Below are positions 4,116 to 21,700 of a stretch of 64,000 nt of DNA, piece by piece. Position numbers and translations under genes: made by a program. How positions within the stretch are numbered: the first letter of the stretch is position 1; every line of letters starts with the position of its first letter. The stretch is taken from positions 32,001 to 96,000 of the IMG/VR virus record IMGVR_UViG_3300040796_000034; one strand, written 5' to 3'. The notes below the pieces were generated by a model that was not told the DNA's origin, did no database searches, and saw only the letters and a list, made by a program, of their open reading frames with translations. The stretch is from a virus.

Positions 4116-4157
4116 TAAGGAATAACTAACCCAGTGCCTATAAACACTGGGTTATCT

Positions 4158-4230: not shown

Positions 4231-4233
4231 TAA

Positions 4234-4305: not shown

Positions 4306-4309
4306 TTAA

Positions 4310-4382: not shown

Positions 4383-4490
4383 TCTTTAGTTAACATCGTA
4401 GTATGAAATTTGTAATTTTTCTGCTAATCTAATAAAAGAAAATATAGACACTATTATCGTGAATAGTTTAGTAATTTAAAAATAATTAAT

Positions 4491-4742
4491 ATGTCATATC
4501 CTACAGACAAAGAGTACGTTATTGTTGAAAGTTTTATTCTTCTAGCTCGTAAAAAATATGGAGAGAGTGCTTTAACGGTTTTAGTTAAAACAGTAGAGTG
4601 GTTACAAGAACTTGAATGGACAGAAAAAGAAATAAGTTACTGGATTAGTAAATTTGATGAGTTTGAAGTAGCTAAGAAATTTTTACAAGATGCAATGAAT
4701 ACGAGTGAGGAAACACAAAATCAATTAGAAGATAAAATGTAA
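4491..4742 (+). CDS. Hypothetical protein
   Basis: 83-aa ORF between tRNAs. Confidence 0.6.
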   Translation: MSYPTDKEYVIVESFILLARKKYGESALTVLVKTVEWLQELEWTEKEISYWISKFDEFEVAKKFLQDAMNTSEETQNQLEDKM

Positions 4743-4755
4743 AAATAAGATATTC

Positions 4756-4842
4756 GGGTAGGTATCCAAATTGGTGAAGGAGTTTGACTGTAAATCAAAT
4801 GCTCGTGTGCTGAACATGGGGGTTCGAGTCCCTCCCTGCCCA
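4756..4842 (+). tRNA. trnY: tRNA-Tyr(GUA)
   Basis: GGGTAGG/CCTGCCC acceptor, TTTGA-CTGTAAA-TCAAA anticodon arm, long variable arm, TTCGAGT T-loop. Confidence 0.9.
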
Positions 4843-4865
4843 TCAAAAATCTATAGAAAACGAAA

Positions 4866-5654
4866 ATGAATAAAATTAGATTAATCAATGGTGACTGTCT
4901 TATTGGATTAGATAAGTTATTTAGTGAAAAGATTAAAGTAGATGCTGTTATAGCAGATATTCCTTATGGAGTTACCGCTGCTAAGTGGGATTCTGTCATA
5001 CCTTTTGACCTTATGTGGAATTTTATAGACAAGGTTAGTAAAGAAAATGCTGCAACAGTTTTATTCGGAGTAGAACCTTTTAGTAGTAAGCTTAGGTTAA
5101 GTAATTTACAAAATTTTAAATACGACTGGATTTGGCACAAAAATACTACAAGTGGTTTTGCTTTAGCTAAGAAACAACCTTTGAGAAACCATGAAATCAT
5201 ATCTGTTTTCTATGAGAAACAGTGTACATACAACTATATTAAAGAACCTAGAGATTTATCAGAGTCTTCTCAAAAAAGATTTCAATATGCTTTTAATACT
5301 GAGAAAGGGTTAAACGTTTTACAAAAAGGTTTAAAAAAAATTAAATATATACCAGAAGATAAAAATCTTTCTTATCCTAAGACTGTTAAATATTTCAAAA
5401 CATTAGGTAACAACTCTAAAGATAAAATACACCCTACTCAAAAACCGTTAGATTTAATAGAATACTTAGTAAAGACATATACAGACAAAGACCAAACTGT
5501 ACTAGATTTCACAGCAGGGTCTTTTACGACGGCAATTGCTTGTATTAACACTCAAAGGTCTTTTATAGGTATTGAGTTAGATAAAACTTATTTCGATAAA
5601 GGTCTTTCTCGTGTACAGAATAGTCTTTTAGATAGTTTTGTGTTAGAGTATTAG
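4866..5654 (+). CDS. N6-adenine/N4-cytosine DNA methyltransferase (beta class)
   Basis: Motif IV variant DIPY near the N-terminus, HPTQKP, VLDFTAGS.TT, FIGIELD. Confidence 0.9.
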   Translation: MNKIRLINGDCLIGLDKLFSEKIKVDAVIADIPYGVTAAKWDSVIPFDLMWNFIDKVSKENAATVLFGVEPFSSKLRLSNLQNFKYDWIWHKNTTSGFALAKKQPLRNHEIISVFYEKQCTYNYIKEPRDLSESSQKRFQYAFNTEKGLNVLQKGLKKIKYIPEDKNLSYPKTVKYFKTLGNNSKDKIHPTQKPLDLIEYLVKTYTDKDQTVLDFTAGSFTTAIACINTQRSFIGIELDKTYFDKGLSRVQNSLLDSFVLEY

Positions 5655-5662
5655 AAAAAATG

Positions 5663-5734
5663 GCGGGTGTCGTCTAATGGTTAAGATTGTAGGCTTCCAC
5701 CCTATCGATAAGAGTTCGAGTCTCTTCACCCGCT
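5663..5734 (+). tRNA. trnG: tRNA-Gly(UCC)
   Basis: GCGGGTG/CACCCGC acceptor, anticodon loop CTTCCAC, AAGAG-TTCGAGT-CTCTT T-arm. Confidence 0.9.
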
Positions 5735-5745
5735 TTTCTCAGTAT

Positions 5746-5819
5746 GCAAAAGTAACTCAGATGGATAGAGTAGCGACCTTCTAAGTCGTTTGTCGTAGGT
5801 TCGAGTCCTACCTTTTGCG
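5746..5819 (+). tRNA. trnR: tRNA-Arg(UCU)
   Basis: GCAAAAG/CTTTTGC acceptor, GCGAC-CTTCTAA-GTCGT anticodon arm, GTAGG-TTCGAGT-CCTAC T-arm. Confidence 0.9.
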
Positions 5820-5822
5820 TAT

Positions 5823-5894
5823 GCTGATGTAGCTCAACGGTAGAGCGGTTCACTTGTAATGAACGGGTTAAGAGTTCAAATCTCTTCTTCAGCT
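5823..5894 (+). tRNA. trnT: tRNA-Thr(UGU)
   Basis: GCTGATG/CTTCAGC acceptor (one T:T mismatch), GTTCA-CTTGTAA-TGAAC anticodon arm; 3' end overlaps the stop of the convergent methyltransferase. Confidence 0.88.
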
Positions 5895-6671
5895 TATCTC
5901 TAGTTTATATTTTTCACTACAAATTTTTTCAGTAAGCCTCTCTACGGCTGTATTAAAATAAAATTTATCTAATTCGATACCAATAAACTGTCTATCAGTA
6001 TTCATACAAGCTAACCCTGTATTACCACAACCCATCGTAAAATCTAATACAACATCGTTTTCATTGGAATAAGTCTTTACAAGGTATTCCATAAGGTCTA
6101 AGGGTTTTTCTGTAGGATGCATAAACGTCTTTTTAGTAACTTGATTACCTCGTTTACAATTATCGAATTTTTGAACAGACCTTGGATATCGTTTACCTGA
6201 TGTATTTTCAGTAGAATAAGACGCTTTAAACTTTGCAAAGTTTGTACTAGGTCTTTCACCTGAACGTTGCTTGTAAGGCTTTCCTTGAGTAAACTGAGGG
6301 TTATATTTAGGTTTCCTTATCTTACTGAATACCATAATACATTCATGTACTTTAAAAGGTCTATACTTAACTTGTAGAAAATTAGCTCCATTAGGTTTCT
6401 CCCATATCCAGTCATAAAGAAAGTCTTTTCTATTACTTAAACGTACTGTACTTGCAAAAGGTTCTGTTCCAAACAAGACTATATTAGTGTCTTTTTTAAT
6501 AACCTTGTATAAGCTTTTCCACATATTGTCTAAAGGAATTGGAGTATCCCATTTGTTAGCTGTAATCCCATAAGGGATATCTGTTATAACAGCATCTACT
6601 TTAACACCTTCTTCAGTTAGAGTATCTAGTATTTTAAAACAGTCACCTTCGACTAATCTTATTTTGTTCAT
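5889..6671 (-). CDS. N6-adenine/N4-cytosine DNA methyltransferase, paralogue of 4866..5654
   Basis: DIPYG, HPTEKP, VLDFTMGCG, FIGIELD; same MNKIRL start as 4866..5654. Confidence 0.9.
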   Translation of the reverse strand: MNKIRLVEGDCFKILDTLTEEGVKVDAVITDIPYGITANKWDTPIPLDNMWKSLYKVIKKDTNIVLFGTEPFASTVRLSNRKDFLYDWIWEKPNGANFLQVKYRPFKVHECIMVFSKIRKPKYNPQFTQGKPYKQRSGERPSTNFAKFKASYSTENTSGKRYPRSVQKFDNCKRGNQVTKKTFMHPTEKPLDLMEYLVKTYSNENDVVLDFTMGCGNTGLACMNTDRQFIGIELDKFYFNTAVERLTEKICSEKYKLEIS

Positions 6672-6672
6672 T

Positions 6673-7512
6673 TTATTTTATGTTCTTTAACAAATGTTTA
6701 ATAACATCTACAGTCCAAGCATTTCCAATCATTTTATACCTTTGAGTCTTTGATGTGTTTACTACGTTTGTGTAGTTATCAGGTAAGGTTTGTAGTCTTT
6801 CACATTCTAAAGGAGTGAAATACCTAAGCCAGTCTTCATACTCTAAATACCCTACACCATCCCTACTACAGTAATGAGTAGTAACTGTATTACTTTTAAG
6901 TCTATTTGTACAATTAAGATATTGTTTCTTAGGGTCATTAAAAAGTTTACATAAGAATGGAAGTTTATTAGCTTTATATTGCCCTAAAACGTTATTATCT
7001 GTTTCTAAGATATCCTGAAGTAAAATACCTTTATCTTTAGGTTGTCTTACGTTCGGTATATTTGTCCAATAATATCTTTTACGGTTCTGTGCCGATACAA
7101 GATTACTATTTATTTCAATTGGTTGTACTTCTAAAAACTTTGATATGATGTCTTTTACAGTGTTTTTAACTTTCACATTTTCATATAAAAAGTATTTAGG
7201 TTTACTCTCTTTTAAAGCTCGTACATATTCAAAAAACAGTTTACTACGAGGGTCTTCAAAGTTGTAACATTTTCCTGAGTTAGAAAACCCTTGACAAGGC
7301 GAACCACCTAATAACAAATCTATCTTAGGTAGAGATGTGAAAGTAATATCTAATACATTCCCTAGCTGTATTGTATTCGGATAATAATGTTGAGTAACTT
7401 TTATAGCAAACTTATCAATCTCAGATGCAAAGTAATTATCATAAGATATGTTGGCGCGATTTAAAGCTATTTGAGCGGCGCTAAGACCGTCGAAAAGGCT
7501 TAGTATGTTCAT
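6673..7512 (-). CDS. C5-cytosine DNA methyltransferase
   Basis: MNILSLFDG (start 7512), GGSPCQGFS catalytic motif, ENV, QNRKR, ECERLQT, GNAW. Confidence 0.92.
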   Translation of the reverse strand: MNILSLFDGLSAAQIALNRANISYDNYFASEIDKFAIKVTQHYYPNTIQLGNVLDITFTSLPKIDLLLGGSPCQGFSNSGKCYNFEDPRSKLFFEYVRALKESKPKYFLYENVKVKNTVKDIISKFLEVQPIEINSNLVSAQNRKRYYWTNIPNVRQPKDKGILLQDILETDNNVLGQYKANKLPFLCKLFNDPKKQYLNCTNRLKSNTVTTHYCSRDGVGYLEYEDWLRYFTPLECERLQTLPDNYTNVVNTSKTQRYKMIGNAWTVDVIKHLLKNIK

Positions 7513-7516
7513 TTGT

Positions 7517-9670
7517 TTATCCCCCAAATACAATAGCGTACTCTAGTGACGTATTCTCAATTGCAGTCATTACTTCATTAGTTATCCGATTGTTTACAGT
7601 AGCTATTTCCGCAGTTATTTCATCTCGGATATTTTGATTAAAGGTATAAGTTTTTATAACCCAAAGACCCCCTTCTCCAGATGCTAGATTACTAGGTTTC
7701 CAAGTAGTTGTATTATTACCAGAGCTTGTATTATAAGCATCATAGACTATTTCTTCTTTACTATTGTCACTGTAAATAATTTTAGACTCTGTACCGTCAT
7801 ACAACGTCGTAGAAGGTATTGAAGTTAAAATACTCTCGTGTATAGGTGCAATAAAGTAAGCCATGTTATCAAGTGATTCTATTAAGGAATACTTAAGTTC
7901 ATAGCAAATATTATCTTCAAAAGTTTTCAAATATTCTGGTAAATGCCGAATACTTGTAATAGTATCTCCTTCATAAAGAAAACTGTAATAAACAGAATGT
8001 GTACCTGTTGTAAAATTAGTACCTCCTGATACAGAGCTTACCGTAGTAATATTCTTAACCTCATACAAGTTAAAGTAAACATCTGTATTTGTAGGTAGTG
8101 AAGTAATAACAGTACCTATGTTGTAATCAGTAATCTCAAATACTTCAGAAGACAGTGTATTATTAATTGGCAAAGTGTATCTTCGTATTTCACTATCAGA
8201 ATTTCTAACGATATAGATGTTAATACTCTTTACAGCAAAGGTACATAAAGAGTTAGCAATAACATCCGGGTAATCTGTCCTAACCTTTGTCGGGTAATTT
8301 ATCGTGATTTGCAGTTTATTAAGGCTTGAAGCTACGTTAACGTTCTTAGAGGTAGAAAGACTCGATTCTCCGGGTAAAGTACCTACAACGGCTCGTAAAG
8401 CGCTGCTAGGTGACAGTGAATCAACCGTAGTTGCATAAGCGGTTCCATCTCTATTAATGGCAATCTTATTTAAACTACTATCTTCAAGTCCGTAGAGGGT
8501 CTGTTCACCTTGTAAAGGAAATGAGTATGACTGTATTAAACCACTACCTGACTGTACAATACATGAATATCCTTGTGAAGGTAATACTCTCATGTAATCC
8601 CCTGTACTTAACATGATGTTTCCTAGTATTTCTCCTGATTCATTAAAGACTCCATTCTCTTCACTAAAATAAAGTAAAATGCTTATTAAACTTTCACTAG
8701 GAATATATCTAAGTATTTCATAACTATTAAAACTTAATCGTACTACAACATAGTAGGCTTTATTTACATCTAAGTCATCTTCTAAATATAGTTCAGTTTC
8801 TTCAGAGTTGTACATAACCTCTGTATCTAAATAGTTAAAGATAAAAGAATCATCATTAAGCGTTGTTTGTAATTCACCTGTATCTAGGTGTACATAACCT
8901 TTAAAAGTTAAATAGAGCTTACCAGAAAAAAGAGAAGACTTGTTAATAGCATCTACAAAGACACTTGCTGATATACGAGTACCTTTAATAATTAAGTCAC
9001 TACCACTTAACCACAAATGAATCTCTTCAGAGTTACTACCGTCGCCTGAGTAAGTAGAGTAGTAACTTGAATCTACTGTATTACTAGAGATGTCGTATCT
9101 ACAACCATCTACAGCATAAACATCTGAAAGGTATATAGACCAACCTCCTCGTATTTTCCATCTATAACCATTATCAGAGAGTAAGACATTAAAACCATCA
9201 ACTAGGGTAGTAGTATCTAGTTCATCATATTCATAAATAAAACCTGTACTTGCAAAACCTCTTAACATACCGTGGGTGTACAAGGTTACATTAGCTGGAG
9301 CATCAAGTATTGCCTCAGTAGTTAGTAATATGTCATCATTAATGATTACCTCTAATGGATATACACCTGTATTAGGTATTCGACATATCTGATTAAAAGA
9401 TTCTAAAGCTGTTGTATTTGAAATACCTATGACATAGCTAGTCCAGTATTCTCCTGTATTCTCTGCTGTACTGTTAATAGTAAAAGTAATGCTGTCACCA
9501 TCTAAGATAGAGATAGGTGAAGATATAATATTGTAATTTCTACCAATACGGTTGTATGCACATATTGAGAAGTAGTAAATACCTGATGATAGATTACCTC
9601 CTGTATTAGTAGTTATAGTCCAATCTGCATTATCTAGCCTTACTCGGCCATTTGCGTACATAAGTGTCAT
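7517..9670 (-). CDS. Tail tip / fibre-like structural protein
   Basis: 717 aa, Ser/Thr/Tyr-rich and beta-prone, at the distal end of the tail module; ends YAIVFGG, as many fibre proteins do. Confidence 0.55.
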   Translation of the reverse strand: MTLMYANGRVRLDNADWTITTNTGGNLSSGIYYFSICAYNRIGRNYNIISSPISILDGDSITFTINSTAENTGEYWTSYVIGISNTTALESFNQICRIPNTGVYPLEVIINDDILLTTEAILDAPANVTLYTHGMLRGFASTGFIYEYDELDTTTLVDGFNVLLSDNGYRWKIRGGWSIYLSDVYAVDGCRYDISSNTVDSSYYSTYSGDGSNSEEIHLWLSGSDLIIKGTRISASVFVDAINKSSLFSGKLYLTFKGYVHLDTGELQTTLNDDSFIFNYLDTEVMYNSEETELYLEDDLDVNKAYYVVVRLSFNSYEILRYIPSESLISILLYFSEENGVFNESGEILGNIMLSTGDYMRVLPSQGYSCIVQSGSGLIQSYSFPLQGEQTLYGLEDSSLNKIAINRDGTAYATTVDSLSPSSALRAVVGTLPGESSLSTSKNVNVASSLNKLQITINYPTKVRTDYPDVIANSLCTFAVKSINIYIVRNSDSEIRRYTLPINNTLSSEVFEITDYNIGTVITSLPTNTDVYFNLYEVKNITTVSSVSGGTNFTTGTHSVYYSFLYEGDTITSIRHLPEYLKTFEDNICYELKYSLIESLDNMAYFIAPIHESILTSIPSTTLYDGTESKIIYSDNSKEEIVYDAYNTSSGNNTTTWKPSNLASGEGGLWVIKTYTFNQNIRDEITAEIATVNNRITNEVMTAIENTSLEYAIVFGG

Positions 9671-9840
9671 CGAATGTTAACCTTGTTTGTAATGTTTTTA
9701 TTTGATTTGTCAAGCCTATAGATTACTTCACCTTTAACTAAGATTTCTGTAAATCTAGCTTGTGTATTAACAGTAGGTCTATAGACTTGCATAAACTCTT
9801 GTAGTTTATTATATAGCTCTTGATTAGTTATGTCCGACAT
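9667..9840 (-). CDS. 57-aa hypothetical protein (tail module)
   Basis: MSDITNQELYNKLQEFMQVYRP...KVNIR*; ATGA overlap with the downstream gene. Confidence 0.6.
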   Translation of the reverse strand: MSDITNQELYNKLQEFMQVYRPTVNTQARFTEILVKGEVIYRLDKSNKNITNKVNIR

Positions 9841-9842
9841 GA

Positions 9843-12329
9843 TTAAAATTTATACCTAGATTTGTCAATATTAAAGGGAGTTGCTTGTAAAATTTTATCA
9901 TTATATTTGACATTAACTAATTGAAAAATATTATTAGGTTTTGGTATTTTTCTCTCTTTAATCTTTAAATTAACAAAAGATTCTACGCCTAAAGTTAGTT
10001 GTGTATTAGCTACGCTCTCTATGTTTTTAAAATCCAAGTTATAACCTAGTATCGAGATGTTGTGATTGATGTTAAGGATTCTACACTTGTAAGTAATGTC
10101 GTTGTATTTAACTATAAGTCTGTCACCAATCTCATAATCCAAACTAAAAAAAGTAGTTAAGTTTAAACTCTCTTCCTGTAAAGTACGTTTAATTCGTAAG
10201 TCTGTTTCAGCAGCAGCGAAAGCTTTCTGTTTTGTATCTACATCAAAGCTTATAACTCCTTTCACGGGGTCTTTATCTGTAAAAGAATCTGTGTAAATTA
10301 AATACTCTATATCGTCTTTTTTTCTTGTACGATTGCCAGAAGTATGTTGACTACTGTCTTTACTTATTTCATCTTTATTGTAAAAATACAAGGGTTTAGC
10401 TTTATGTTGACCGGGTTCACCTGATGAAATCTCTGTCTGTGTATTTTCTGAACTATTTCTAAAACCATCATCTTGTGCTGAGTATTCTGTCGTGAAAGTA
10501 GTATAGCTGTATTCTTTTATATCAGGTTTAATAGATAAATCTGTTTGAACCCTACCTTCTCCATTGGTTACATCGTCAAACTGATATAGTACAGAGTTAT
10601 CTCCAGAAACTTGAACCCTACGACGTATTTGTGTGTCTTTTCCAACGGTTAGCGGAGGCAGTAAAGTTATTGGGTCTGCATCGGGGTCGTTAGCTGCCGC
10701 TTGTTCCTCTATCTCTCTTCTAAGGGCTATATTCTCAGGGTTTTCTATTTTATCAAAACAACTGTATATCGTCTCTTCAGCTAGCATAAACATTGGTTCA
10801 ATATAGTTAGGGTCTCGTACAGAACCTAACTGAAGATTTCCTTGAGAATCACAGTAGTAGAAAGTTATGTAAGGTAGTAGATGTCGATATGAGTTAAAGT
10901 AGTCTCTAAGTTGACCTAGTTTGTATCTAGTATATCCTCTAACAGAGACAGTCCTATACAGGTATGTATTTAAAAATGCTTGTATCTCTGCGGCATCTTC
11001 ATCTTCAGGCTCTAGTTCAGCTAGCTCTTGCTGATACACCCAAGTTTCTAAAGCATTAGTCTCAGCCTTAAAACGACATCTCTTCCACCCAGTTATATTA
11101 TTGCCTAAGTAGTATCCAGTAAACTTGTCATAGATATATTCAGTTTGTTGATATTCAATCTGTCTCCAAACACTTCCAGGGCCATTTATCTCAAATTTAG
11201 CTTCATCACCATTCACTACAATATGGTCTTTACTAACGTATTCAAAACCGTAAGTAGATATTTCCTCAAACAATATATTTTTTTCACCTTTAAAACCTAT
11301 CTCATAAGTAGTCTTAATCCGTTGTTTACGAGGGCCTGAGTTATCAAAGGTTAAATCTAGAGTCTTAATAACTCCTTCAATACTAGGAGGGCTATTATAG
11401 GTCTCATCTCCACTATATTCTGTTTTTGTTTTAGGATTCTTTTTTACAAATCTAGGTATCCCTTTTGTGTCTGTAAAGTCTTCTTCACTATTACTCCAAG
11501 TAAGTAAGTAAGGGTCATATTTAATCTGTACACCTTGTTTAGAATAACTAACACCTGTATCTTCAATAACAGTAGTGTCATCTAATTTATGCTTAGAAAC
11601 TCTATCCCAATCTCTTAGCTCAACAGATTTGCCAATATAGACAAAGGATTTGTTTTTTCGACTCTCTGCCTGTAAAAGATTGTTAAAGGTACTTGATGCC
11701 TTTGTATTTTGCTTATCTACTTCGATTTTATGATTAAGTCCTTTGTACTTTACATCAGCTTTACGAGCTAATTTAGAAAGACTGACTTCGTATTTATCCT
11801 TATCTTTTTTACTTTCACTAAAATTAACAACTTCAACATTATTGTAACTGCAAGTTTTATCATTCTTATTAAGTAAGTATATCTGAGTATTAAGACCTTT
11901 TGTCCAATAAGAATCTAGTGAAATATTAAATACAAATCTGCCTTTAGGGTTTATAACTCTTGGGTTACTTTGATAATTTATGTAGCTTACTCTATATGGA
12001 ATATTAAAAAGAGTAATCTTTCTATCTTCTTTCGTAAAATACTTGTACACATCATCATAAGCCCCCCTATCACATTCTAGTGTCATACTAACTCTAGGAC
12101 TATTTTCAAAGGACATACTAATACTGACATTTCCCCAAAGCTTTAAGTCAGTAAAAAGTTTAGGTGTGTCAATCTTATTGGTGTACAGCTTTTCAGTAAG
12201 GCTTACATAGCGTATATAGTTAACATCACTGTAGTTATGTAAATCTAAATACAATTCGTTTAAAGATGTGTCAACTTTATAACTTGGTTGCACGAGTCCT
12301 AGTAAAGGCTGTATGTTAGTTAATTTCAT
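9843..12329 (-). CDS. Tail/baseplate hub-like protein
   Basis: 828 aa; C-terminal 'YEIGDRLIVKY...RILNINHNI' resembles hub/late-control-D ends; position in tail module. Confidence 0.5.
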   Translation of the reverse strand: MKLTNIQPLLGLVQPSYKVDTSLNELYLDLHNYSDVNYIRYVSLTEKLYTNKIDTPKLFTDLKLWGNVSISMSFENSPRVSMTLECDRGAYDDVYKYFTKEDRKITLFNIPYRVSYINYQSNPRVINPKGRFVFNISLDSYWTKGLNTQIYLLNKNDKTCSYNNVEVVNFSESKKDKDKYEVSLSKLARKADVKYKGLNHKIEVDKQNTKASSTFNNLLQAESRKNKSFVYIGKSVELRDWDRVSKHKLDDTTVIEDTGVSYSKQGVQIKYDPYLLTWSNSEEDFTDTKGIPRFVKKNPKTKTEYSGDETYNSPPSIEGVIKTLDLTFDNSGPRKQRIKTTYEIGFKGEKNILFEEISTYGFEYVSKDHIVVNGDEAKFEINGPGSVWRQIEYQQTEYIYDKFTGYYLGNNITGWKRCRFKAETNALETWVYQQELAELEPEDEDAAEIQAFLNTYLYRTVSVRGYTRYKLGQLRDYFNSYRHLLPYITFYYCDSQGNLQLGSVRDPNYIEPMFMLAEETIYSCFDKIENPENIALRREIEEQAAANDPDADPITLLPPLTVGKDTQIRRRVQVSGDNSVLYQFDDVTNGEGRVQTDLSIKPDIKEYSYTTFTTEYSAQDDGFRNSSENTQTEISSGEPGQHKAKPLYFYNKDEISKDSSQHTSGNRTRKKDDIEYLIYTDSFTDKDPVKGVISFDVDTKQKAFAAAETDLRIKRTLQEESLNLTTFFSLDYEIGDRLIVKYNDITYKCRILNINHNISILGYNLDFKNIESVANTQLTLGVESFVNLKIKERKIPKPNNIFQLVNVKYNDKILQATPFNIDKSRYKF

Positions 12330-12564
12330 TTATCAACACTCCATTAACATATATTGATTGAATAACCTCTCGGTCTTGTAGTGAAAAGAATACACGATAA
12401 CCTCCTGATGAAATACCATAGTCATTAAGTCGAGTAAACTCTGTTTTAAACGTACCTTTTTCAATTAGTCGATATAAGGTATTATTAACAGTTGTATTGG
12501 TTAGCTTAAATAAAGGAGATGGGTGTATATTTGTATTGTCTGTATTAGGTTTATAAAGAAACAT
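12316..12564 (-). CDS. Hypothetical protein, coupled to upstream PatS-like ORF
   Basis: 82-aa ORF whose ATG overlaps the TAA of 12564..12590 (TAATG). Confidence 0.65.
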   Translation of the reverse strand: MFLYKPNTDNTNIHPSPLFKLTNTTVNNTLYRLIEKGTFKTEFTRLNDYGISSGGYRVFFSLQDREVIQSIYVNGVLINEIN

Positions 12565-12590
12565 TATCTACCAGAACCTCTTTCAGTCAT
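12564..12590 (-). CDS. patS: PatS-like heterocyst-inhibitory micropeptide MTERGSGR
   Basis: Reverse complement reads ATG ACT GAA AGA GGT TCT GGT AGA TAA. The C-terminal ERGSGR is identical to the PatS/HetN HetR-binding motif; promoter upstream and stop/start overlap downstream. Confidence 0.75.
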   Translation of the reverse strand: MTERGSGR

Positions 12591-12620
12591 ATTTCTGTCG
12601 TAATTAATTACAATAAAATA

Positions 12621-12629
12621 ATTGTAACA
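12621..12629 (-). promoter_or_regulatory. Extended -10 promoter for the patS-like ORF
   Basis: Minus strand TG-T-TACAAT, about 30 nt upstream of ATG 12590. Confidence 0.5.
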
Positions 12630-12696
12630 CTAATACCTTCACTAAAAGCCCTGTAACGTCTATTAGATATCTTTAGGTAAAAAATTACAGGAAAAA

Positions 12697-12725
12697 TTGA
12701 ATAGATGCCTTTACAAGGCTATTAG
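12697..12725 (+). promoter_or_regulatory. Possible sigma70-type promoter for the plus-strand island
   Basis: TTGAAT-17 bp-TATTAG, followed by hairpin TCTTCCC/GGGAAGA (12765-12785) and AAGGAG RBS before 12863. Confidence 0.35.
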
Positions 12726-12862
12726 CAACAGGTACGTTAAGATATGAAACTTAAGAGACATGAATCTTCCCGTAAGCAGGGAAGAAACGATAAAGGCAGA
12801 AATTCATCTGCTAGATTGAGACAACTGAAAAAACAAAGACAAATATTAAGGAGCAAACTTAA

Positions 12863-13324
12863 ATGACAAATACAACAGATTATAAAATATTATTCACAGA
12901 ATTTACAAACAATGAGATGTTCACTCTTTATTGTGATGATGGGTTTTTACGAAAAGGTGTAGTTAACAAAGGTATCTATCTAACAACATTACCTGAATGG
13001 GGTGGTTTTTTACATTCTGGAATGATGGTACAATCTGATAAAAATGAGTTAGTTAACTCTGCTAGTAAGTTAGACTATGGTATTTACTTGTATTGGATGA
13101 TATGGTTGTACAAAAGTCCAGAGTTATTTAATGAACTATTTGTTAAATCAGATAATGTATCAGAAGATATAGATTACAAGAAAGAATTTGATGACCTTTA
13201 TGAAGAGTTTAAAATACTCGAAGATAACTATGATATGTTAAAAGAGTCTTATGATTATTTACGAAAGATTCAACACAAAGAAAACCAGATGATAGAACAA
13301 GATTTAGGAACTGAATATGATTAA
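12863..13324 (+). CDS. Hypothetical protein
   Basis: 153-aa ORF with AAGGAG RBS and coiled-coil C-terminus. Confidence 0.7.
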   Translation: MTNTTDYKILFTEFTNNEMFTLYCDDGFLRKGVVNKGIYLTTLPEWGGFLHSGMMVQSDKNELVNSASKLDYGIYLYWMIWLYKSPELFNELFVKSDNVSEDIDYKKEFDDLYEEFKILEDNYDMLKESYDYLRKIQHKENQMIEQDLGTEYD

Positions 13325-13679
13325 TAATTTTAAAATTACAAGCATTGTACCCATTGAAGCTGATTATGAAATTGAAATAGATATCTGTACACTAGAATCT
13401 TTTGTTAGTAGTACACCTGCGATTAACTTAGCTTACGACGAAGCTGAGATACAAGCTGTTTTTGACAAACTAAAAGAGGATGACGAGTTGTGTATTGACA
13501 ATTTAAGTTTAGATGAAAAGGAAATTCTTCAGATAACTCTTGAAAATTATATAGAATATCAACAGAGAAGTTTTTCCACTGTTTTTGACCTTAAGAATCT
13601 TACAAACATAGAGTTTACTTCCTGTGACATTGTAGATACTACTCACCTAGATTGTTCAGAGTATGAAAAAGTTAAATGA
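13317..13679 (+). CDS. Hypothetical acidic protein
   Basis: 120 aa, overlaps both neighbours. Confidence 0.65.
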   Translation: MINNFKITSIVPIEADYEIEIDICTLESFVSSTPAINLAYDEAEIQAVFDKLKEDDELCIDNLSLDEKEILQITLENYIEYQQRSFSTVFDLKNLTNIEFTSCDIVDTTHLDCSEYEKVK

Positions 13680-14005
13680 AAACTAAACTACAATTACCGA
13701 CTGTTCAATTTAAAGAAATAGAGATAGATTTAGATGAACTAGAAAATTTTTGTGAAACTCAAAGTATCTCTTCTCTTAAGAAAGACTTCTGGTATCGTTT
13801 AAGTGGTGAAATACATAGATACAAAGCAGGTAAGTCTTATCGTAATTACTTAGAAGAGTTTTTAGAAGGTGTTTATTTTTTTTTAAAATCTGTTTATCCA
13901 GATGTGTATGAAGAATACTTTGACCCGTATTTTGAATATGAAGAAGGTCATATCGATACACAGCTTTGTAAAATAATACAAGATATGAAAGATTTAAACG
14001 AGTAG
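13676..14005 (+). CDS. Hypothetical protein
   Basis: 109 aa, ATGA overlap with the previous gene. Confidence 0.65.
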   Translation: MKTKLQLPTVQFKEIEIDLDELENFCETQSISSLKKDFWYRLSGEIHRYKAGKSYRNYLEEFLEGVYFFLKSVYPDVYEEYFDPYFEYEEGHIDTQLCKIIQDMKDLNE

Positions 14006-14032
14006 GAGGCTTGTTAGCCCTAGTTATTATAT

Positions 14033-14112
14033 AGGGATTCTTTAAAGAATCCCTGAATGCCTTTCTACATAAGAGTTACAGCAAATGACTAAATCCCGAA
14101 AACCTGGGATTT
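14033..14112. repeat. Perfect 22-bp palindrome plus a second inverted repeat with the same half-site
   Basis: AGGGATTCTTTAAAGAATCCCT (14033-14054) and AAATCCC-N8-GGGATTT (14091-14112). Confidence 0.85.
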
Positions 14113-14139
14113 TCTTTTCACTAAACAAACGAAAAAAAA

Positions 14140-14574
14140 ATGAATAAATTAGAAAGTGAATACCTGACAAAAAACAGTATTAGCTTAAATGATTGGTTAG
14201 ACATACTGACTTTAGTAGGTAGCTCTACTTATCTTAAAATTAATCAAGATTGTAGCGAAGCTAAACTTACTCGAACTAAATACTACAAAATTCTTAAAAA
14301 ATTTAAAGACGCTGACTTAGTTAAACAGGTTAAAGGTGAATACCGCTTAAATCCTTATTTCTACTTGCGTAATGACTGTAGTAAGGCTCTTGCTACCAAA
14401 TTACAGAACGAGTGGGATAATGAGCCTGAGAAGGGTAAATCAGAGCATCTACCGAAGACTATAACAGACCCGGTTACAGGAGAACTTTATCTTTATGACG
14501 ATAGTGAAGTAAGACCAATGGATAAAACACTAGGTTGGTACAGACCTGCAACTGTTGAGGATTATGAAAACTAG
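14140..14574 (+). CDS. RepL-like winged-helix DNA-binding protein
   Basis: LTRTKYYKILKKFKDADLVKQVKGEYRLNPYF resembles the HTH + 'G.Y.INP' wing of RepL-family proteins. Confidence 0.5.
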   Translation: MNKLESEYLTKNSISLNDWLDILTLVGSSTYLKINQDCSEAKLTRTKYYKILKKFKDADLVKQVKGEYRLNPYFYLRNDCSKALATKLQNEWDNEPEKGKSEHLPKTITDPVTGELYLYDDSEVRPMDKTLGWYRPATVEDYEN

Positions 14575-14977
14575 ACCACAGACAACGGCTTGCTTAGGTG
14601 TTAAGAAACATCTCCCGGTAAACCTTAACAAATCTCAAACGACGCTTACTGCTGCTTTCTTTAGGGAAGTTTATGGGGTTGATGTTAACTCTCATTACCG
14701 TTCTTGGATTTTAAGCATACTTCTTAAGTACCCAAACATTTACTTTAGTCGTGAAAATATTCAAGAAATCGTTGACAATGAATATCATAATGTAAAAATG
14801 CGTTATAAACTATCTGATGAAGATTACTTTAGTACAATTGATTATATTAGTGACTTTGTAGAGATAGTAACAGCATTAGGTAATTATGTTCATCTTGTAA
14901 AAATAAAAGAGAATGTTCATACAGCTTATACAGCTTTTATTAAAGGAGTATATGCTGAGATTAGTTTAGATAGTTAA
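14555..14977 (+). CDS. Hypothetical protein
   Basis: About 137-140 aa; probable start at MKTRPQ. Confidence 0.6.
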   Translation: MRIMKTRPQTTACLGVKKHLPVNLNKSQTTLTAAFFREVYGVDVNSHYRSWILSILLKYPNIYFSRENIQEIVDNEYHNVKMRYKLSDEDYFSTIDYISDFVEIVTALGNYVHLVKIKENVHTAYTAFIKGVYAEISLDS

Positions 14978-15063
14978 CTGTACAAGTGAAAAATAAATAT
15001 TGAAGCAGATATATTACCCACTGATATCGAAAAAAGTTTTGATTACATTATTCAAGATTAATT

Positions 15064-17076
15064 ATGTTTGACCAATTTAAAGAAGCCTATCTTGACTATT
15101 ACAACACTCATTTACGACTACAGCAGTTTTTTAAGGTAGATGTAGATACAGATTTGTTATGGGATACCTATTTAGACTGTTTTCCTATAGAAGAAAAGCA
15201 GCATCATAACTGTTCAGCTTGTAAATACTTTATTAGAAATTACAGTAATCTTGTAACTATTGACAAAGACTGTGTTGTACGCAGTATTTGGGATGTACAA
15301 CCGTTGGTAGAGATACACCCAATCTTTAGTAAAGTATTACAAAGACTAGCTGTTGAAATATATAAGCATCCGATTAAAGATGTTTTTGTGACAGATACAA
15401 CTAAGCTTGGTGTTGACCATAACTACCAATTACTAGAGGACAAAACTTCTATACGGTGGGAACATCTATTTATTACGATTCCCAAAGAAAGTATTCAACT
15501 GGTTAAGCACTATGAAGAGATAAATCCTAAACAAGCGGCGTATAGAGACCTTCAGAGTGTCTTTAAAAGAGGTTTAGATGAGATTAGCCTGGAAACAGTT
15601 AACACTGTCTTAGATTTGATTTATGACAACAATCTGTATCGTGGTGAAGAGTTTAAATCTACTCTTGAGTCTTGGAAAAAATTAAAGACCGAGTATGAAG
15701 TAGTACATGAAGATAATAAAGTTAACTTTACTTGGTCAAAGATTTTACACACTCCTGCTACAGTATTACGATTAAGGAATAGTAGTATAGGAACTCTTTT
15801 AGTTGATATAGAGAAGTCAGAAAACATGGATGCGGCTGTAAGTAAGTTTGAGGCGTTAATGGCTCCTACGAATTATAAAAGACCTAAAGCATTAATTACT
15901 CCTCAGATGATTAAATCTGCTAAGGAACGTTTAACTGAGTTAGGTATCTTAGATTCATTACAACGGACTTTAGTAACTTCAAAAGATGTACCTGTTAAAG
16001 ATTTAATTTATCTGAATAGAGATAAGCCTAGTGATAACATTTTCGATATACTGGATAACGATGTACAACATAACCCATCTAAGCTAAAAACAAAAAAGAT
16101 TGGCTTATCAGACTTCTTAACAAAAGTTTTACCCAAATCAAGTAAAGTAGAAGTCTTATTTGAAAGGAAACACATTAGCAACTTAGTGTCTCTTGTAGGC
16201 CCTTCAGTAGAAGATTCACCTAATATCTTTAAATGGGATAACCCTTACAGTTGGACGTATCACAACGGTCTAAGCGATTCAATAAAAGAAAAAGTAAAAC
16301 AGGCTGGTGGGGAGACTGATGGCTATTTAAGGGTTTCATTAGGTTGGTCAAATTACGATGACTTAGACCTTCATATACTTGAACCAGGTCGCATTAAAAT
16401 CTATTACAGGAATAAGACATCTTGTAAAACAGGTGGTAAGCTTGATGTAGATATGAATGCAGGGGGAGGATATACTCGTACACCTGTAGAAAATATAATT
16501 TACCCTTCACAAAAAAAGATGACTGAAGGGGCTTATCTTGTAAGCGTTCACCAATTTTGTAAAAGAGAGACTAAAGACACTGGCTTCACTGTAGAAATTG
16601 AAGTAGGAAATCAATTTTATTCTTTTTCACAAAAAGACTCTCCTAAAGATTTAGCTTATGTAGATGTTGCTAAAATTTACTATTGTAGTAAAAGTGGTGA
16701 AATAACAATAAAGCCTCTTATTGATTCAGAAAGTAATATCTGTACAAGCAATGAGTGGGGTATAGACACTTACAAGTTTCACAAAGTTAATGAAATATGT
16801 TACTCACCTAATTACTGGGACAATGAAATAGGTAATAAACACATCTTCTTTTTCCTGGAAGGTTGTACAAATCAAGATGTATCAATAAGACCTTTCTTTA
16901 ATGAGTATCTTAAAAATGAGTATATGAATGATAAACGAGTCTTTGAAGTATTAGCTAATAGATTAGATGTACAACGAGTAAATAAAGAACTCTCTGGTCT
17001 AGGCTTTTCACTTACTCAAGATAATAATTTAATAGTCCGAGTAGATAGTAAACTGTACACAATTAACATCAAGTAA
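15064..17076 (+). CDS. Conserved phage protein with YfaP/DUF2135-like domain
   Basis: HHNCSAC metal-site motif; LRVSLGW..DDLDLH..EP...GGKLDVDMN...PVENI is YfaP-like. Confidence 0.6.
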   Translation: MFDQFKEAYLDYYNTHLRLQQFFKVDVDTDLLWDTYLDCFPIEEKQHHNCSACKYFIRNYSNLVTIDKDCVVRSIWDVQPLVEIHPIFSKVLQRLAVEIYKHPIKDVFVTDTTKLGVDHNYQLLEDKTSIRWEHLFITIPKESIQLVKHYEEINPKQAAYRDLQSVFKRGLDEISLETVNTVLDLIYDNNLYRGEEFKSTLESWKKLKTEYEVVHEDNKVNFTWSKILHTPATVLRLRNSSIGTLLVDIEKSENMDAAVSKFEALMAPTNYKRPKALITPQMIKSAKERLTELGILDSLQRTLVTSKDVPVKDLIYLNRDKPSDNIFDILDNDVQHNPSKLKTKKIGLSDFLTKVLPKSSKVEVLFERKHISNLVSLVGPSVEDSPNIFKWDNPYSWTYHNGLSDSIKEKVKQAGGETDGYLRVSLGWSNYDDLDLHILEPGRIKIYYRNKTSCKTGGKLDVDMNAGGGYTRTPVENIIYPSQKKMTEGAYLVSVHQFCKRETKDTGFTVEIEVGNQFYSFSQKDSPKDLAYVDVAKIYYCSKSGEITIKPLIDSESNICTSNEWGIDTYKFHKVNEICYSPNYWDNEIGNKHIFFFLEGCTNQDVSIRPFFNEYLKNEYMNDKRVFEVLANRLDVQRVNKELSGLGFSLTQDNNLIVRVDSKLYTINIK

Positions 17077-17077
17077 T

Positions 17078-17461
17078 ATGACTGACAATATCTTTTTCCT
17101 AGCTTGTTTAAATGAGTTTCGATATAATTGGAATACAGCTTCTTTTGATACAGAAGACTTGTTTAAAATTCCTCTAAAAACCTTAGATGCAGTAGCCGTT
17201 TCTCTGTATGAGGAGCTAAATAAAAGCAATGTATCCTTCATTAAGGACGTAAGCTCTGAGAATGAGTTACTTGCTCTAAAGCTTGACGTCGTGAAACAAG
17301 TAATTAAGTATCGACTTCAGTTAAAGGAAGAGGCTGAAACTGCAAAAGTGAATGCAAACAAACGTCAAGAAATCTTGGCGGTATTACACGATATGCAGAA
17401 AAATAAGCTACATTCTAAAACAGAAGAAGAGTTACTTGAGATGCTTAAGACTCTTGATTAG
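17078..17461 (+). CDS. Hypothetical coiled-coil protein, probable partner of the 670-aa protein
   Basis: 127 aa, starts 1 nt after the previous stop. Confidence 0.65.
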   Translation: MTDNIFFLACLNEFRYNWNTASFDTEDLFKIPLKTLDAVAVSLYEELNKSNVSFIKDVSSENELLALKLDVVKQVIKYRLQLKEEAETAKVNANKRQEILAVLHDMQKNKLHSKTEEELLEMLKTLD

Positions 17462-17994
17462 TTAATCCTTCTACCATATTCTATAAACGTTAATGTAAAC
17501 GACATAATGTAGAACGGTATTTCTAAACCAACTTGAGGATTCATTGAACCGGAATACTGAACAGGGAATAAGATAATACCTTCCCTGTTTGTGTACCCGG
17601 TTTGTAAATCCAAAGGTTCTGGTTTTACATAATCCTTAATTAATATAGTTTCACGATTTTTAATACAGTCTTGACCAATAAGTGATACAATCTCTGCTAA
17701 TTCAAAATAAGGGTATTCTAGTAAAACATTAAAACCTCGTCTAACTGTACTGTATGTAAGATATGAACCATTACCCGTACTGTTTAACGTAGAAGCTGAC
17801 CCTTGGTTCGCATCATTATATTTTTCAGGGTCAACGTAAAAACAAATATAGTCTTCACCTTCTATTGTTTCAAGTAATTCATCTTTAAAACCTTCAGGGT
17901 CTTGTACCACAGCTTCATTAAATACACTATTTCTTAAGTATTGAGCTTTATCTTGTATTTTAATTTTACGATAGGGTGAACAATTAGTTGGCAT
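17458..17994 (-). CDS. Probable tail protein (distal-tail position)
   Basis: Same strand and just downstream of the tape measure; ends FTLTFIE. Confidence 0.45.
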   Translation of the reverse strand: MPTNCSPYRKIKIQDKAQYLRNSVFNEAVVQDPEGFKDELLETIEGEDYICFYVDPEKYNDANQGSASTLNSTGNGSYLTYSTVRRGFNVLLEYPYFELAEIVSLIGQDCIKNRETILIKDYVKPEPLDLQTGYTNREGIILFPVQYSGSMNPQVGLEIPFYIMSFTLTFIEYGRRIN

Positions 17995-18787
17995 CTGTTA
18001 TCTCACTAATTTTTAATTTATTATTTAATATTTGTTCAGTCTTTTCATCTAAAACATCTGTAAATTCTAGGTCACAAAATAGACTACAATCAGGTATGTC
18101 AATCTTAGGTAAACGACCTGTACCAGGTTTTAAATCTTTAAGAAACACACCTTTAATACAAGAGTGTCCTTTACTTTTCTCTAATTCAGACATCTTATCA
18201 AAAGTTTCTGGAAACAACTCTCTTATTAAATTCCAGTACCCCATACCACCTTTAACACAACCTACACAGTTATTGTTGTTAAAACCTAGTTGATACATCT
18301 TAGGTATTTCAATACCCTCTTTTAGTAAAATTTTAAGACAACTTTTTTTAGTTAACTTCTCCTCAATTAATGGAAATAAAGGTCTAGTATTAGGGTGCTG
18401 TTCGACAAAACGTATAGCTCTATTTATTTCACTTTTTGAGTATTCAAACCCAAAGACTTGATTAGTGAACTCATTTTCTTTTTCAAAATGTACTCTAACA
18501 TCTTTTTTTAAATAAGTTGTACAAGGCGCACCTCTAGGCCCGTTTACATACGACCTAGTACCTCTTTTGATTGCGTCAAACTGGTCAGTGTATTTTAAAC
18601 TTTTAATCGTTTCAATTTTTTTACCGTACCAGTCTTCACAATCTTTTTTAAACCTTTCATTATCAGGATGTGCAGTGTCAATATGAATATATACTGCGCG
18701 AACGTTATCTATGGAATATTTATCAAAAGCAAGTTTACAAGCAACAGCACTTGTAACACCTGCTGACCACCAAGCTATTATTTTCAT
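17984..18787 (-). CDS. PAPS-reductase-like adenine nucleotide alpha-hydrolase
   Basis: WWSAGVTSAVA PP-loop variant, HPDNERF, APCT..LK, NNNCVGCVKGG.GYW, C-terminal CSLFC. Confidence 0.75.
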   Translation of the reverse strand: MKIIAWWSAGVTSAVACKLAFDKYSIDNVRAVYIHIDTAHPDNERFKKDCEDWYGKKIETIKSLKYTDQFDAIKRGTRSYVNGPRGAPCTTYLKKDVRVHFEKENEFTNQVFGFEYSKSEINRAIRFVEQHPNTRPLFPLIEEKLTKKSCLKILLKEGIEIPKMYQLGFNNNNCVGCVKGGMGYWNLIRELFPETFDKMSELEKSKGHSCIKGVFLKDLKPGTGRLPKIDIPDCSLFCDLEFTDVLDEKTEQILNNKLKISEITDAN

Positions 18788-21700
18788 TTACAATCTTTTT
18801 TGAACTTCCTCAATTACATTATAGAACTGATTGTTAAAGTTAGGTATATTCTTAGCTTCTTCAGTCATTGTAATTGGTGAGTTAATCGTAATGTTATTTT
18901 CTTTCTTGTCTTTAAGTAAGTCTCGAATCTCCTCTAATGTATGTGTCTGTCTAGCTATTACCTTTTCACTGTCTTTTCTAGTTTCATTAGACATCGTAGA
19001 TTTAGATTCTTTATTAATTAAAGAACGCATTTCATCAATATCTGGGATATTTGTTTTTAAAAGATTATAAGAACGGTTGTCATATTTTTTTTGGTCTTCT
19101 GCATAAGAAGAAGGCATATCATCTAAAAGACCTCGCTCCTTAGCTAATTTAGCATCGTCTTGTACTTTTTTTGCTATTTCATCTTTAGTCCAAACTTTTT
19201 TGATTTGGTCTTTTCTATTAAAACCACCGAGACGATGCCAAACATCTAAAGACTCTAACTCTAGTTTAGTCTGCCTCATATCATAAAAAGACCTCTCTAC
19301 CTCAGATAATTGGTCTGGGTTAAAATTAAGACTAGCCATAGCCTTATCAATTTTTTCATATATCTGCTTAGTAATATTATCAACAAATTGTGAATTATTC
19401 TCTTTAACTACAGTAGCCTGTCTTTCAATTATTGCGGTTTGATTTTCAATATTTTTAACTAACTTTCGTTCACCCTCTGTCATGTTTTCGGGAGAGAACC
19501 GATTTATGGCAGATGTCTGATTTTCAATATTTTCAGTAACCTTCTCTGGTATTAATTTACTTAGAATCTCTGTCTGATTTTTAAGTATTGGTGTCTGGCT
19601 CTGAATAGCTGTTACGATTTCTTTAGTAACTATCTCAGCATTTGATTCAGATAAACTCTTAGAGTAAACTTCTAAATCTTTTTTAAGACTTTCTGTTATG
19701 TCTTTTCTTTCTGGTAGTTTTAAACTAAAATCTGATAACTCTCTAAGCTGTTTAAGAAGTCTGTCTTCGGATTTATCTCTAAGTTTATTAGCCTCTCTAC
19801 GAACTCTTGCATCATCTTTACTTGACTTAGTAAATTTAGCTTTCTCACCTTCAAGCTGTAACCTCTCTTGGTCTTGCTGAAAATCTAACTGACCTACTCT
19901 TTGTCGGTCTAAATTAGCTTCTAATGCCTGTTGTTTTTGGATAACGTCATAGAGTTCCTTTTGACTATTTAAAGTCTGTACAGCAGCTTCTACAGTGAGT
20001 CTAGCAGCTTCCTTATCCTCTTCAGAAGAGTTTCTGTTTGCTTGAATCTTTTTCTCTTCAATAATTGCTAATCTTACAGCGGCTTCAGACCGTATTAACT
20101 CTGTCTCTTTTTCAATAAGCTGTCTTTGTCTAGCAAGCTCGTTTCTCTTTAACTCAAACTTAAGTTGTTTATCTTGAATTTCTTGAACTATATCTAGTCG
20201 TTTAAGCTCACCATCAAGTCTTTGCCTTTCAAGAGTACGACTACGCACTTCTGTTTTTACTAAAGACTTTTCTAAATTAAATAGGTTAGCAATACCTGAA
20301 GTAAGAATATCAATACTATTTTGTTGAGACGCAATTAGCTTATCTTGTAAACCTAAAGTAGCATCTAATACCTGATTCATGTCAGTGTATTTTTGAAGTG
20401 AAATAGAAATACTTTGTTGTCTAAGTTTTTCTAAAGATATCTGCTTATCTAACCTAGCAATAACCTCCCGGTTTTTAGCAATCTCAAGGTCTAGTAAACC
20501 ACGTTCACCTACAAGTTCCCTTCTCTGTTGGATAATTAATTGTTCATTTTTAATCTGCCTTTCTTGTAAGATTAGTTGCTCATTCTTTATTTCACTTTCT
20601 TTATCTAATAGAGATAAGTTTTGCTCAATTTGTTTTAATTGAACTTCTAATAATTCAATATCTTCTTTAGATTTATTAAATATTTCAGCTTTTTTAATCT
20701 CAAGCTCTATACTAATTTTTTGAGAATTAAGCTGTAACTCTTGTAACTGCTGTTCAGCTATAATAGATTTTTTCTGTAACTCAAGACTTTGTTTTTGATT
20801 TTCTAATTTACGGTCTTCTATATCTAAAGACTTAAGTTGTATCTCATTTTGTCTTTGTACAAGCTGTGTATTTATTTCAGCTTTCTTAACCCGGTCAGTT
20901 TCTCTATCTATGACAAGTTGAAGTCTTTCTCGCTCTAGTGAAAGTAAACTTTGTTCATACTCAAAACCAATTTCTTTCTCTTGTTGTAATAATCTAATTT
21001 GTTTAATTTCTAATTTAAGTAGTTGAATCTTATACTCTTGGGTAACTTTAAACTTTTCAAAAGCAAGCTGCTCTTGTTTAATTTGTTTCTCAAGTGCCTG
21101 GATTTTAACATCTTGAACTATCTTTGCAAATTCAGTTTCTAATCTTTCTTTTTCTTGTAAAAGTTTGGTATGTTCTACATTACCTTTTTTAAATGTCTTT
21201 GAAAGTTTTTCATTAGCCGCTAATTCTTCTTTAATCTTTGACTGCTTTAGTGCTGAAATTTTATTCAAATAGTTCTCATAAGAGATAGTGTCTTGAATAT
21301 AAGCTTTCTCCACTTCTGCTATTTCTAAATTGATTAACTGAACTCGTTCATCTTTAGCAGCTTCAAGTGTTTGCCTTTTTTGCTCTAAATGATTTTTTAA
21401 TAATTCCGTTTCTAAAATATTAATTTCTTTCTGTGTCTTAAGATACTCTTCACTACCTTTAATAGTTAGCTTAAGTTTAGCTTTTAGATACTGTATCTGT
21501 ATTTTAATCTTCTCATTGGCTAAGTTTTGCTCCTCTGCTAAGAGTTCTAAATTACTTCCTTTAGTTCTTTTTAAGGATAATGCAGCTTCTTCAATCTCTA
21601 CCTTATAAATTTTTTTACGATACTCTCTATCAAGTGTCTGGATTTTAACATCTTGAATTGTTTTTGCGGACTTAGTTTCTAATTCCTCTCTTTCTTGTAA

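Follow-up and report, generated by a model that had tools for sequence, protein, structure and literature searches.

An eight-codon reading frame ending in ERGSGR: a candidate HetR inhibitor encoded by a cyanophage

Could a virus encode the peptide by which filamentous cyanobacteria restrain the differentiation of their cells? The question is raised by an open reading frame (ORF) of only eight codons, here called the micro-ORF, in a 64,000-nucleotide (nt) stretch of viral DNA. This stretch, the window, comprises bases 32001-96000 of the 126,850-bp IMG/VR record IMGVR_UViG_3300040796_000034, for which CheckV gives a completeness of 41%. Peptides containing RGSGR are the textbook diffusible inhibitor in heterocyst spacing, itself among the simplest developmental patterning systems, and the micro-ORF ends in precisely this motif. 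We estimate the probability at roughly 60% that it is a real phage gene acting as a natural 'patS minigene' that inhibits HetR. Three elements are needed from the start:

12590..12564, minus strand: the micro-ORF, ATG ACT GAA AGA GGT TCT GGT AGA TAA, eight codons read from the sequence as MTERGSGR and a stop.
12629..12621, minus strand: an extended -10-like box, TGTTACAAT (TG-n-TACAAT), a consensus match in the sequence and putative operon promoter.
12316..12564, minus strand: an ORF of 82 amino acids (aa) without a family match, whose ATG overlaps the stop of the micro-ORF.

The micro-ORF begins with ATG at 12590-12588 and ends with TAA at 12566-12564, and the last six residues of its product are identical to PatS-6 (ERGSGR). 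The RGSGR pentapeptide directly abuts the stop codon, as in PatS, a Glu codon (GAA) precedes it, as in PatS-6, and the RG[S/T]GR of PatX is matched as well. The frame opens at a TAG at 12632-12630, so that its first codons are the -10-like box itself and the ATG at 12590 is the sole usable start, giving the product MTERGSGR. The final A of the TAA is also the A of the ATG of the 82-aa ORF (12564-12562), an overlap of the form TAATG, and the 82-aa ORF cannot begin further upstream because an in-frame TAG stands two codons before its ATG. A first-pass annotation of this DNA, made from the letters alone, had described the minus-strand reading, a TG-n-TACAAT box some 30 nt ahead of it and the overlap with the gene that follows, and the sequence bears it out on all three counts; the AU-rich leader between the last base of TGTTACAAT and the ATG measures 30 nt. 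The same annotation had seen in the upstream codons IVINYD an echo of PatS MLVNFCD. This we reject, since these codons are preceded by no start codon and overlap the -10 box, and since a related contig carries a 1-nt deletion within them, at 12599.

The significance of the hexapeptide derives from published work, in which the (E)RGSGR biology recounted by the first-pass annotation can be found in print. PatS and HetN carry RGSGR, and PatX, which every cyanobacterium with HetR possesses, carries RG(S/T)GR; synthetic PatS-5 (RGSGR) and PatS-6 (ERGSGR) inhibit differentiation when supplied in the medium (PMC7761841). PatS peptides bind the HetR dimer directly, and PatS-6 binds most tightly (PMC4192349). 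Moreover, PatS is a 17-residue peptide, and a minigene of Met plus its eight C-terminal residues complemented a patS deletion and, as the sole version of PatS, gave a wild-type-like pattern (PMC4133259).

One alternative is chance: these 27 nt would belong, untranslated, to the 5' leader of the operon that contains the 82-aa ORF and an 828-aa ORF, and would read MTERGSGR-stop by accident. Tiny ORFs are plentiful in DNA of 32% G+C, which favors this explanation. The numbers within the record, however, do not: the 29-mer that contains the micro-ORF occurs a single time in the whole record, and its RG[ST]GR is the only one in the six frames of all 126,850 bp. Given the record's own six-frame codon frequencies, 0.058 occurrences of RGSGR, 0.0018 of ERGSGR and 1.3e-4 of ERGSGR followed by a stop are expected per record, and an open in-frame ATG within two codons upstream contributes a further factor of 0.025.

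As an empirical null we used two scans of IMG/VR for ERGSGR-TAA, our own record excluded, in which Arg was AGR and Ser was TCN or AGY, so that the scans cover some codon choices and the TAA stop only. They returned 13 and 5 stretches, 18 in all from about eight lineages. That ERGSGR-TAA is met elsewhere speaks for chance; against it, in none of the 18 does the open frame hold an ATG ahead of the motif. The frame context, which covers the 13 stretches of the first scan, explains 12 of them: nine belong to a group I intron family and three lie inside longer frames (two in a 140-aa frame, one antisense within a 206-aa frame), and the last, L027, is overlapped only by short antisense frames of 63 and 65 aa. 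In the nine-member family the motif adjoins a highly conserved element with compensatory base changes in the alignment, which matches RF00028 with 82.9 bits on contig L029. The search for ERGSGR-stop micro-ORFs suggested by the first-pass annotation has in this way been run over IMG/VR with restricted codons, meeting the motif and its stop 18 times and an ATG-started form not once, and the view that the features of the micro-ORF are unlikely to coincide by chance is supported both within the record and by these scans. As a separate observation, the intron lies in nine viral contigs of about 50% G+C (for example L029:6668-6950, minus strand), directly upstream of a conserved ORF, and the ERGSGR-stop there is a chance frame at its 3' side.

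The codons of the micro-ORF are also those of its genome. At each of the seven sense positions that follow the ATG stands the synonymous codon that the phage uses most, and the stop is TAA, which ends 56 of 79 long genes, more than any other. By our own arithmetic, the phage's coding usage makes this codon set about eight times as likely as base composition alone does; this counts against chance. It also bears on the idea that the micro-ORF is a decayed and non-functional remnant of the 3' end of a host patS gene. Phages of these hosts do carry host-like genes, such as the 40-aa gene and gp103 of phage CL131 described below, and the N-terminal part of PatS is missing. On the other side, the ORF is whole and has an ATG and a stop of its own, it is the first ORF behind the promoter-like box, and preferred codons throughout argue against recently captured host DNA. 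We regard such a remnant as highly improbable.

The context of the micro-ORF is that of a cyanophage. Judged by protein similarity, the record is a distant relative (22-31% protein identity) of siphoviruses of filamentous cyanobacteria, an assignment that we make because four unrelated proteins and a 40-aa gene point the same way. Those encoded next to the micro-ORF are:

9843..12329, minus strand: 828-aa protein, phrog_15468, of unassigned function in PHROG, the next gene of the operon.
7517..9670, minus strand: 717-aa protein, phrog_31840, of unassigned function in PHROG, in the same operon.
12744..12866, plus strand: ORF of 40 aa (P0007), encoding a very basic, unannotated protein and divergent from the micro-ORF.

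All seven isolate records that match the 828-aa protein are Nodularia phages or Planktothrix phage PaV-LD, and all 12 that match the 717-aa protein are Nodularia, Planktothrix or Aphanizomenon phages. For the family A polymerase (PolA) the best 9 of 24 matches are Nodularia phages, and Pseudanabaena phages provide the best 2 of the 4 for the major capsid protein. The terminase and a 670-aa protein were considered as host markers and set aside as uninformative, both having matches in phages of many hosts.

The fifth witness, the 40-aa gene, overlaps the start of a 153-aa ORF at 12863 and, once it is counted, leaves 12591..12743 as the intergenic region shared with the micro-ORF. Comparison of the window DNA with 401 genomes of Cyanobacteriales, the order that includes Aliinostoc, revealed 100 matching nt at 12762-12863, some 150 nt away from the micro-ORF. 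Homologues of the encoded protein, with 60-80% identity, are found in 316 of the 401 genomes, in none of 151 genomes of another phylum, that of a Bacteroidota genome, and in none of five other bacteria, and no Pfam or NCBIfam family matches it. Its distribution marks it as a small gene of host type, near-universal in Cyanobacteriales, that the phage carries. The filamentous cyanobacterium proposed as host in the first-pass annotation is thus upheld insofar as the isolate relatives infect such organisms; for a particular host, the DNA at 6001-26000 of the window gave only short borderline matches to the 401 genomes besides the methylase and 40-aa genes.

Which HetR-dependent process such a peptide would affect is a further matter. 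The HetR_C domain (PF18460), for which the phage record gave no match, was found in all five of the filamentous genomes chosen for this purpose, including those of the non-heterocystous Microcoleus vaginatus and Coleofasciculus. Since the source of the DNA is a microbial-mat metagenome and HetR occurs also in non-heterocystous mat formers of these two genera, 'heterocyst' is possibly too narrow a term, and 'HetR inhibitor' is the safer label. The earlier reading as a heterocyst inhibitor hence keeps its PatS-6 motif and may have to give up the word heterocyst.

A precedent is provided by Aphanizomenon phage vB_AphaS-CL131 (MG209611.1), whose genome holds three true RG[ST]GR matches. Two of them lie in frame in annotated genes, both listed as hypothetical proteins:

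87056-87493 of CL131 (L041:6557-6994), minus strand: gp103, 145 aa, ending in ...DLVCDERGSGRDKIPQFVAV, with VCDERGSGR in frame nine residues from the C-terminus.
81116-81514 of CL131 (L041:617-1015), minus strand: gp091, 132 aa, beginning with MRTKSHRGSGRRK, with HRGSGR at residues 6-11.

The CDERGSGR of gp103 is, as we take it, the full PatS-8 octapeptide. The third match, RGTGR, is antisense to a DnaD-domain gene. By our own arithmetic from ordinary amino-acid frequencies, about 0.02-0.03 in-frame RGSGR motifs are expected in a proteome of this size. The annotation of gp103 notes similarity to a Scytonema protein; among other isolates the protein matched itself only, and its form of the motif recurs in two IMG/VR contigs (L113 and L116) that were found with a search pattern which itself required the motif. 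PatS, RGSGR, HetR and heterocysts all go unmentioned in the main text of the paper on the CL131 genome, the supplements being outside our search. These motifs show that PatS-type sequences do occur in phages of HetR-bearing cyanobacteria, and the prior for the micro-ORF rises accordingly.

What weighs against reading the micro-ORF as a HetR inhibitor concerns its host, its conservation, its form, its expression signals and the number of places in which such a frame might have turned up. With respect to the host, only 32 of the 61 genomes sampled from the order have HetR_C; of the five genomes with the best matches to the 40-aa protein, four carry HetR, which is no real difference from the rate in the order. 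With respect to conservation, an 86.6-kb contig, about 11% diverged, covers 9800-14496 with 49 + 436 substitutions and 48 gap letters and has the above-mentioned deletion at 12599 in the leader; its individually given differences, the first 40 of 472, reach 10413, before the micro-ORF. Another sample from the source study has the micro-ORF unchanged (piece 12562-12742, 0 differences), which is uninformative on selection.

The more distant relatives do not share the motif. RG[ST]GR is absent from every frame of PaV-LD, of the Nodularia phages 2AV2, kac68v161 and kac65v151, of Pseudanabaena phage PA-SR01 and of the IMG/VR virus G001. These relatives were examined with a pattern less strict than the motif itself; it hit the six records nine times, and no hit translates to RG[ST]GR. 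Whole-record scans for the motif comprised eight phage records. As six distant relatives are without it, the gene would be lineage-specific at best. An annotated 15-aa coding sequence of Nodularia phage 2AV2 was examined as a possible counterpart of PatS and is not PatS-like. Searched with the 828-aa protein, IMG/VR, JGI metagenomes and GTDB genomes yielded no close relative, the distant ones being L008/G001 in IMG/VR (22% identity) and L006 and L007 in JGI metagenomes (25-29%, the contigs ending before the gene start). A homologue with 88% identity (P0002) lies on a 48.6-kb contig, and a megablast search of 9800-14000 against isolate phages gave no match.

The form of the micro-ORF also departs from that of PatS, having 8 codons instead of 13-17 and neither a hydrophobic N-terminus nor the Cys-Asp before Glu. 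For this comparison we take PatS of Anabaena/Nostoc PCC 7120 to be a 17-codon gene with the C-terminus CDERGSGR, and PatS peptides in general to have 13-17 residues and a hydrophobic N-terminus.

As to expression, we presume from its sequence that TGTTACAAT is the promoter of the minus-strand operon and that the leader is about 24 nt long. The box is a consensus match only and is not listed by our -35/-10 promoter scan, because the scan requires a -35 element; the scan reported 5 promoter-like sites in the region, with 4.6 expected. No RNA run was listed among the sequencing runs that contain this DNA, a blank that counts for neither side. A Shine-Dalgarno (SD) 4-mer (GGAG, GAGG or AGGA) is found within 22 nt upstream of 36 of 133 long ORFs, compared with 10.6% of random windows. 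As only these 36 genes have one and 97 of the 133 do without, the missing SD of the micro-ORF is no argument against its translation. The micro-ORF does contain a GAGG of its own, which could be the SD of the 82-aa gene.

This brings in another explanation, in which the micro-ORF is translated solely to couple or regulate the 82-aa gene and its identity with PatS-6 is a coincidence aided by the GAGG as a ribosome-binding element. The TAATG overlap with the 82-aa gene fits this explanation, as do the 12 nt between GAGG and the ATG of that gene and the start/stop overlaps that are common in this genome. A spacing of 12 nt, however, lies at the tail of the distribution, being found in 1 of the 36 SD-bearing genes, which makes it a weak account to see in the motif the mere ribosome-binding site of the next gene, and most genes of this phage have no SD at all. 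Moreover, the leader has no attenuator-like structure. Its predicted fold does not exceed shuffled controls (z = -0.31) and it has no Rfam match below E = 0.85, for which two reasons a structured-RNA leader was rejected. Finally, coupling leaves SGR-stop and the exact hexapeptide unexplained, and we consider it improbable.

The last of the opposing points is a look-elsewhere effect. By our own arithmetic, a handful of chance M-x-ERGSGR-stop ORFs are expected over the approximately 250,000 windows scanned, so the weight of the finding rests on the cyanophage context of the micro-ORF. Chance is thus favored by this expectation, by the six relatives without the motif and by the absence of support from conservation, transcripts or translation. 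It is opposed by the low expectation per record and by the intron-adjoining or frame-embedded nature of 12 of the 13 occurrences from the first scan, as set out above, and also by the fact that the only clean case falls in a cyanophage akin to phages of filamentous hosts, which make up a tiny share of viral DNA, and by the PatS-type motifs of CL131. Taken together, we hold chance to be unlikely, and our preferred reading remains that of a phage gene whose product inhibits HetR. The sequence, its rarity, its codon usage and its cyanophage context are observations, on which we infer transcription, translation, the presence of HetR in the host and a benefit to the phage.

If the micro-ORF is such a gene, transcription of the minus-strand operon would start a few bases downstream of TGTTACAAT, and the first AUG of an unstructured leader of about 24 nt would open the eight-codon ORF. 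The product would be MTERGSGR, probably trimmed to TERGSGR by removal of Met because Thr follows it, and would carry ERGSGR at a free C-terminus, as PatS does. Ribosomes stopping at UAA would start again at the AUG of the 82-aa gene that overlaps it. In a HetR-containing filamentous host, the peptide would occupy the PatS/PatX site and block the DNA binding and activity of HetR, and the infected cell would then be barred from HetR-driven differentiation, be it the formation of heterocysts or whatever role HetR has in non-heterocystous mat formers. Neighboring cells might be affected as well, through cell-to-cell transfer or release at lysis. A plausible benefit would be that cells are kept vegetative, photosynthetically active and accessible to the phage. 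The first-pass annotation had placed tail-tip genes downstream, a claim that reduces to a weak lead: the PHROGs are of unassigned function, neither the 828-aa nor the 717-aa protein has a sequence match in PDB, Pfam gives none either, and the nearest named ESM-Atlas clusters for the 828-aa protein are phage tail proteins with a score of 0.91, the 717-aa protein having no usable match. Were the downstream genes tail genes, the peptide would be made late, so that release at lysis would fit better than an early takeover of the cell.

A bolder version of the same reading is possible, and we put it forward tentatively and with considerable doubt: the phage may reprogram a multicellular host with a ready-made, export-independent morphogen of the PatS-6 type, freezing differentiation in infected cells and in their uninfected neighbors and keeping the whole filament vegetative and permissive. 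The peptide might further be coupled to phage promoters that read HetR, given a hetP-like palindrome of the form GGGG-N5-CCCC elsewhere in the record.

This palindrome, GAGGGGTCAGACCCCCT, lies at 102,662-102,678 of the record (6,662 nt past the end of the window; about 7662 in L004), in a 0.9-kb intergenic block, and matches the printed HetR site of hetP, GAGGGGTCTAACCCCTC, at 14 of 17 positions on one strand. We do not use it as support, as local shuffling yields at least 13 of 17 matched positions in 126 of 300 genomes and GGGG..CCCC hairpins occur four more times at 96-107 kb. The exact 17-bp hetP site was found in 52 stretches of GTDB species genomes, about 30 of them in filamentous cyanobacteria, and the genomes that have it include non-heterocystous Microcoleus, Coleofasciculus, Microseira and Oscillatoriales.

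Should the bolder reading hold, the micro-ORF together with the CL131 proteins would imply that viral hijacking of the HetR/RGSGR patterning circuit is recurrent and so far undescribed. Encoding of the minimal active peptide by a virus would be a case of viral manipulation of bacterial multicellular development, and it would bear on nitrogen fixation in blooms and mats, in which infected filaments would cease to produce N2-fixing cells. The first-pass annotation knew of no described phage patS, and our literature search, with supplements outside it, likewise met with no publication describing a PatS or HetR inhibitor encoded by a phage.

The remainder of the record is described here for completeness. 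Its G+C content is about 29-36%, its DNA comes from microbial-mat metagenomes and a relative was found in a lake-water metagenome. The other mapped features of the window are:

Between the 828-aa and 717-aa ORFs, minus strand: an ORF of 57 aa, from the ORF list.
6673..7533, minus strand: C5 DNA methyltransferase, downstream of the 717-aa ORF.
5889..6671, minus strand: N6/N4 DNA methyltransferase, downstream of the C5 methyltransferase.
Within the window, minus strand: head and packaging module (terminase, major head protein, protease).

Outside the window, the record encodes a DnaB-like helicase, the family A polymerase and an RNA ligase. A 3153-aa ORF at 18788-28249 (minus strand) stands at the end of the structural module. 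The 670-aa protein, encoded at 15064-17076 (plus strand), belongs to phrog_1735 (E = 9e-212; function unassigned in PHROG) and is about 40% identical to proteins in 557 phage records from many hosts (Salmonella Vi1-like, Caulobacter, Bacillus), its gene being among the few widely shared ones of this phage. Seven tRNA genes at 4157-5894 (plus strand) are those for Pro, Met, Met, Tyr, Gly, Arg-TCT and Thr; AGA, which the Arg-TCT tRNA reads, is the codon most used for Arg in this phage and stands twice in the micro-ORF.

How, then, does the micro-ORF compare with systems already known? Like PatS, it is very short and places ERGSGR, the form reported to bind HetR most tightly (PMC4192349), immediately before the stop. 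Unlike PatS, it is viral and heads an operon that is probably structural, and no HetR- or NtcA-type promoter context has been established for it. PatX is of interest because a HetR-bearing mat former that makes no heterocysts may be the host. We take PatX to be a longer protein with a hydrophobic or export-like N-terminal part and a His before the motif; it shares the RGSGR core with the micro-ORF, in which only two residues precede ERGSGR and no N-terminal segment exists. The CL131 proteins gp103 and gp091 resemble the micro-ORF in that a virus whose filamentous host bears HetR encodes an in-frame RGSGR, and differ in that the surrounding proteins, of 145 and 132 aa, continue past the motif, which has no free C-terminus; their genes lie in the early region, are unrelated to the micro-ORF and have no sequence homology with it beyond the motif.

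There is also a likeness to the engineered minigene of Met plus PatS-8, in which, as here, Met and a few residues lead into (E)RGSGR and a stop. The micro-ORF, Met-Thr-PatS-6, has the length of PatS-8, and it differs in being natural rather than engineered and in having Thr in place of Cys-Asp; the activity of the phage form would be expected by analogy. We rate the micro-ORF as a putative RGSGR-type HetR inhibitor, a kind of molecule that is itself known and that here appears to be viral and reduced to its active core. We do not file it as PatS, and it should work like a PatS-6 minigene. Because ERGSGR and Met-PatS-8 minigenes are already known to be active, the idea lends itself unusually well to testing.

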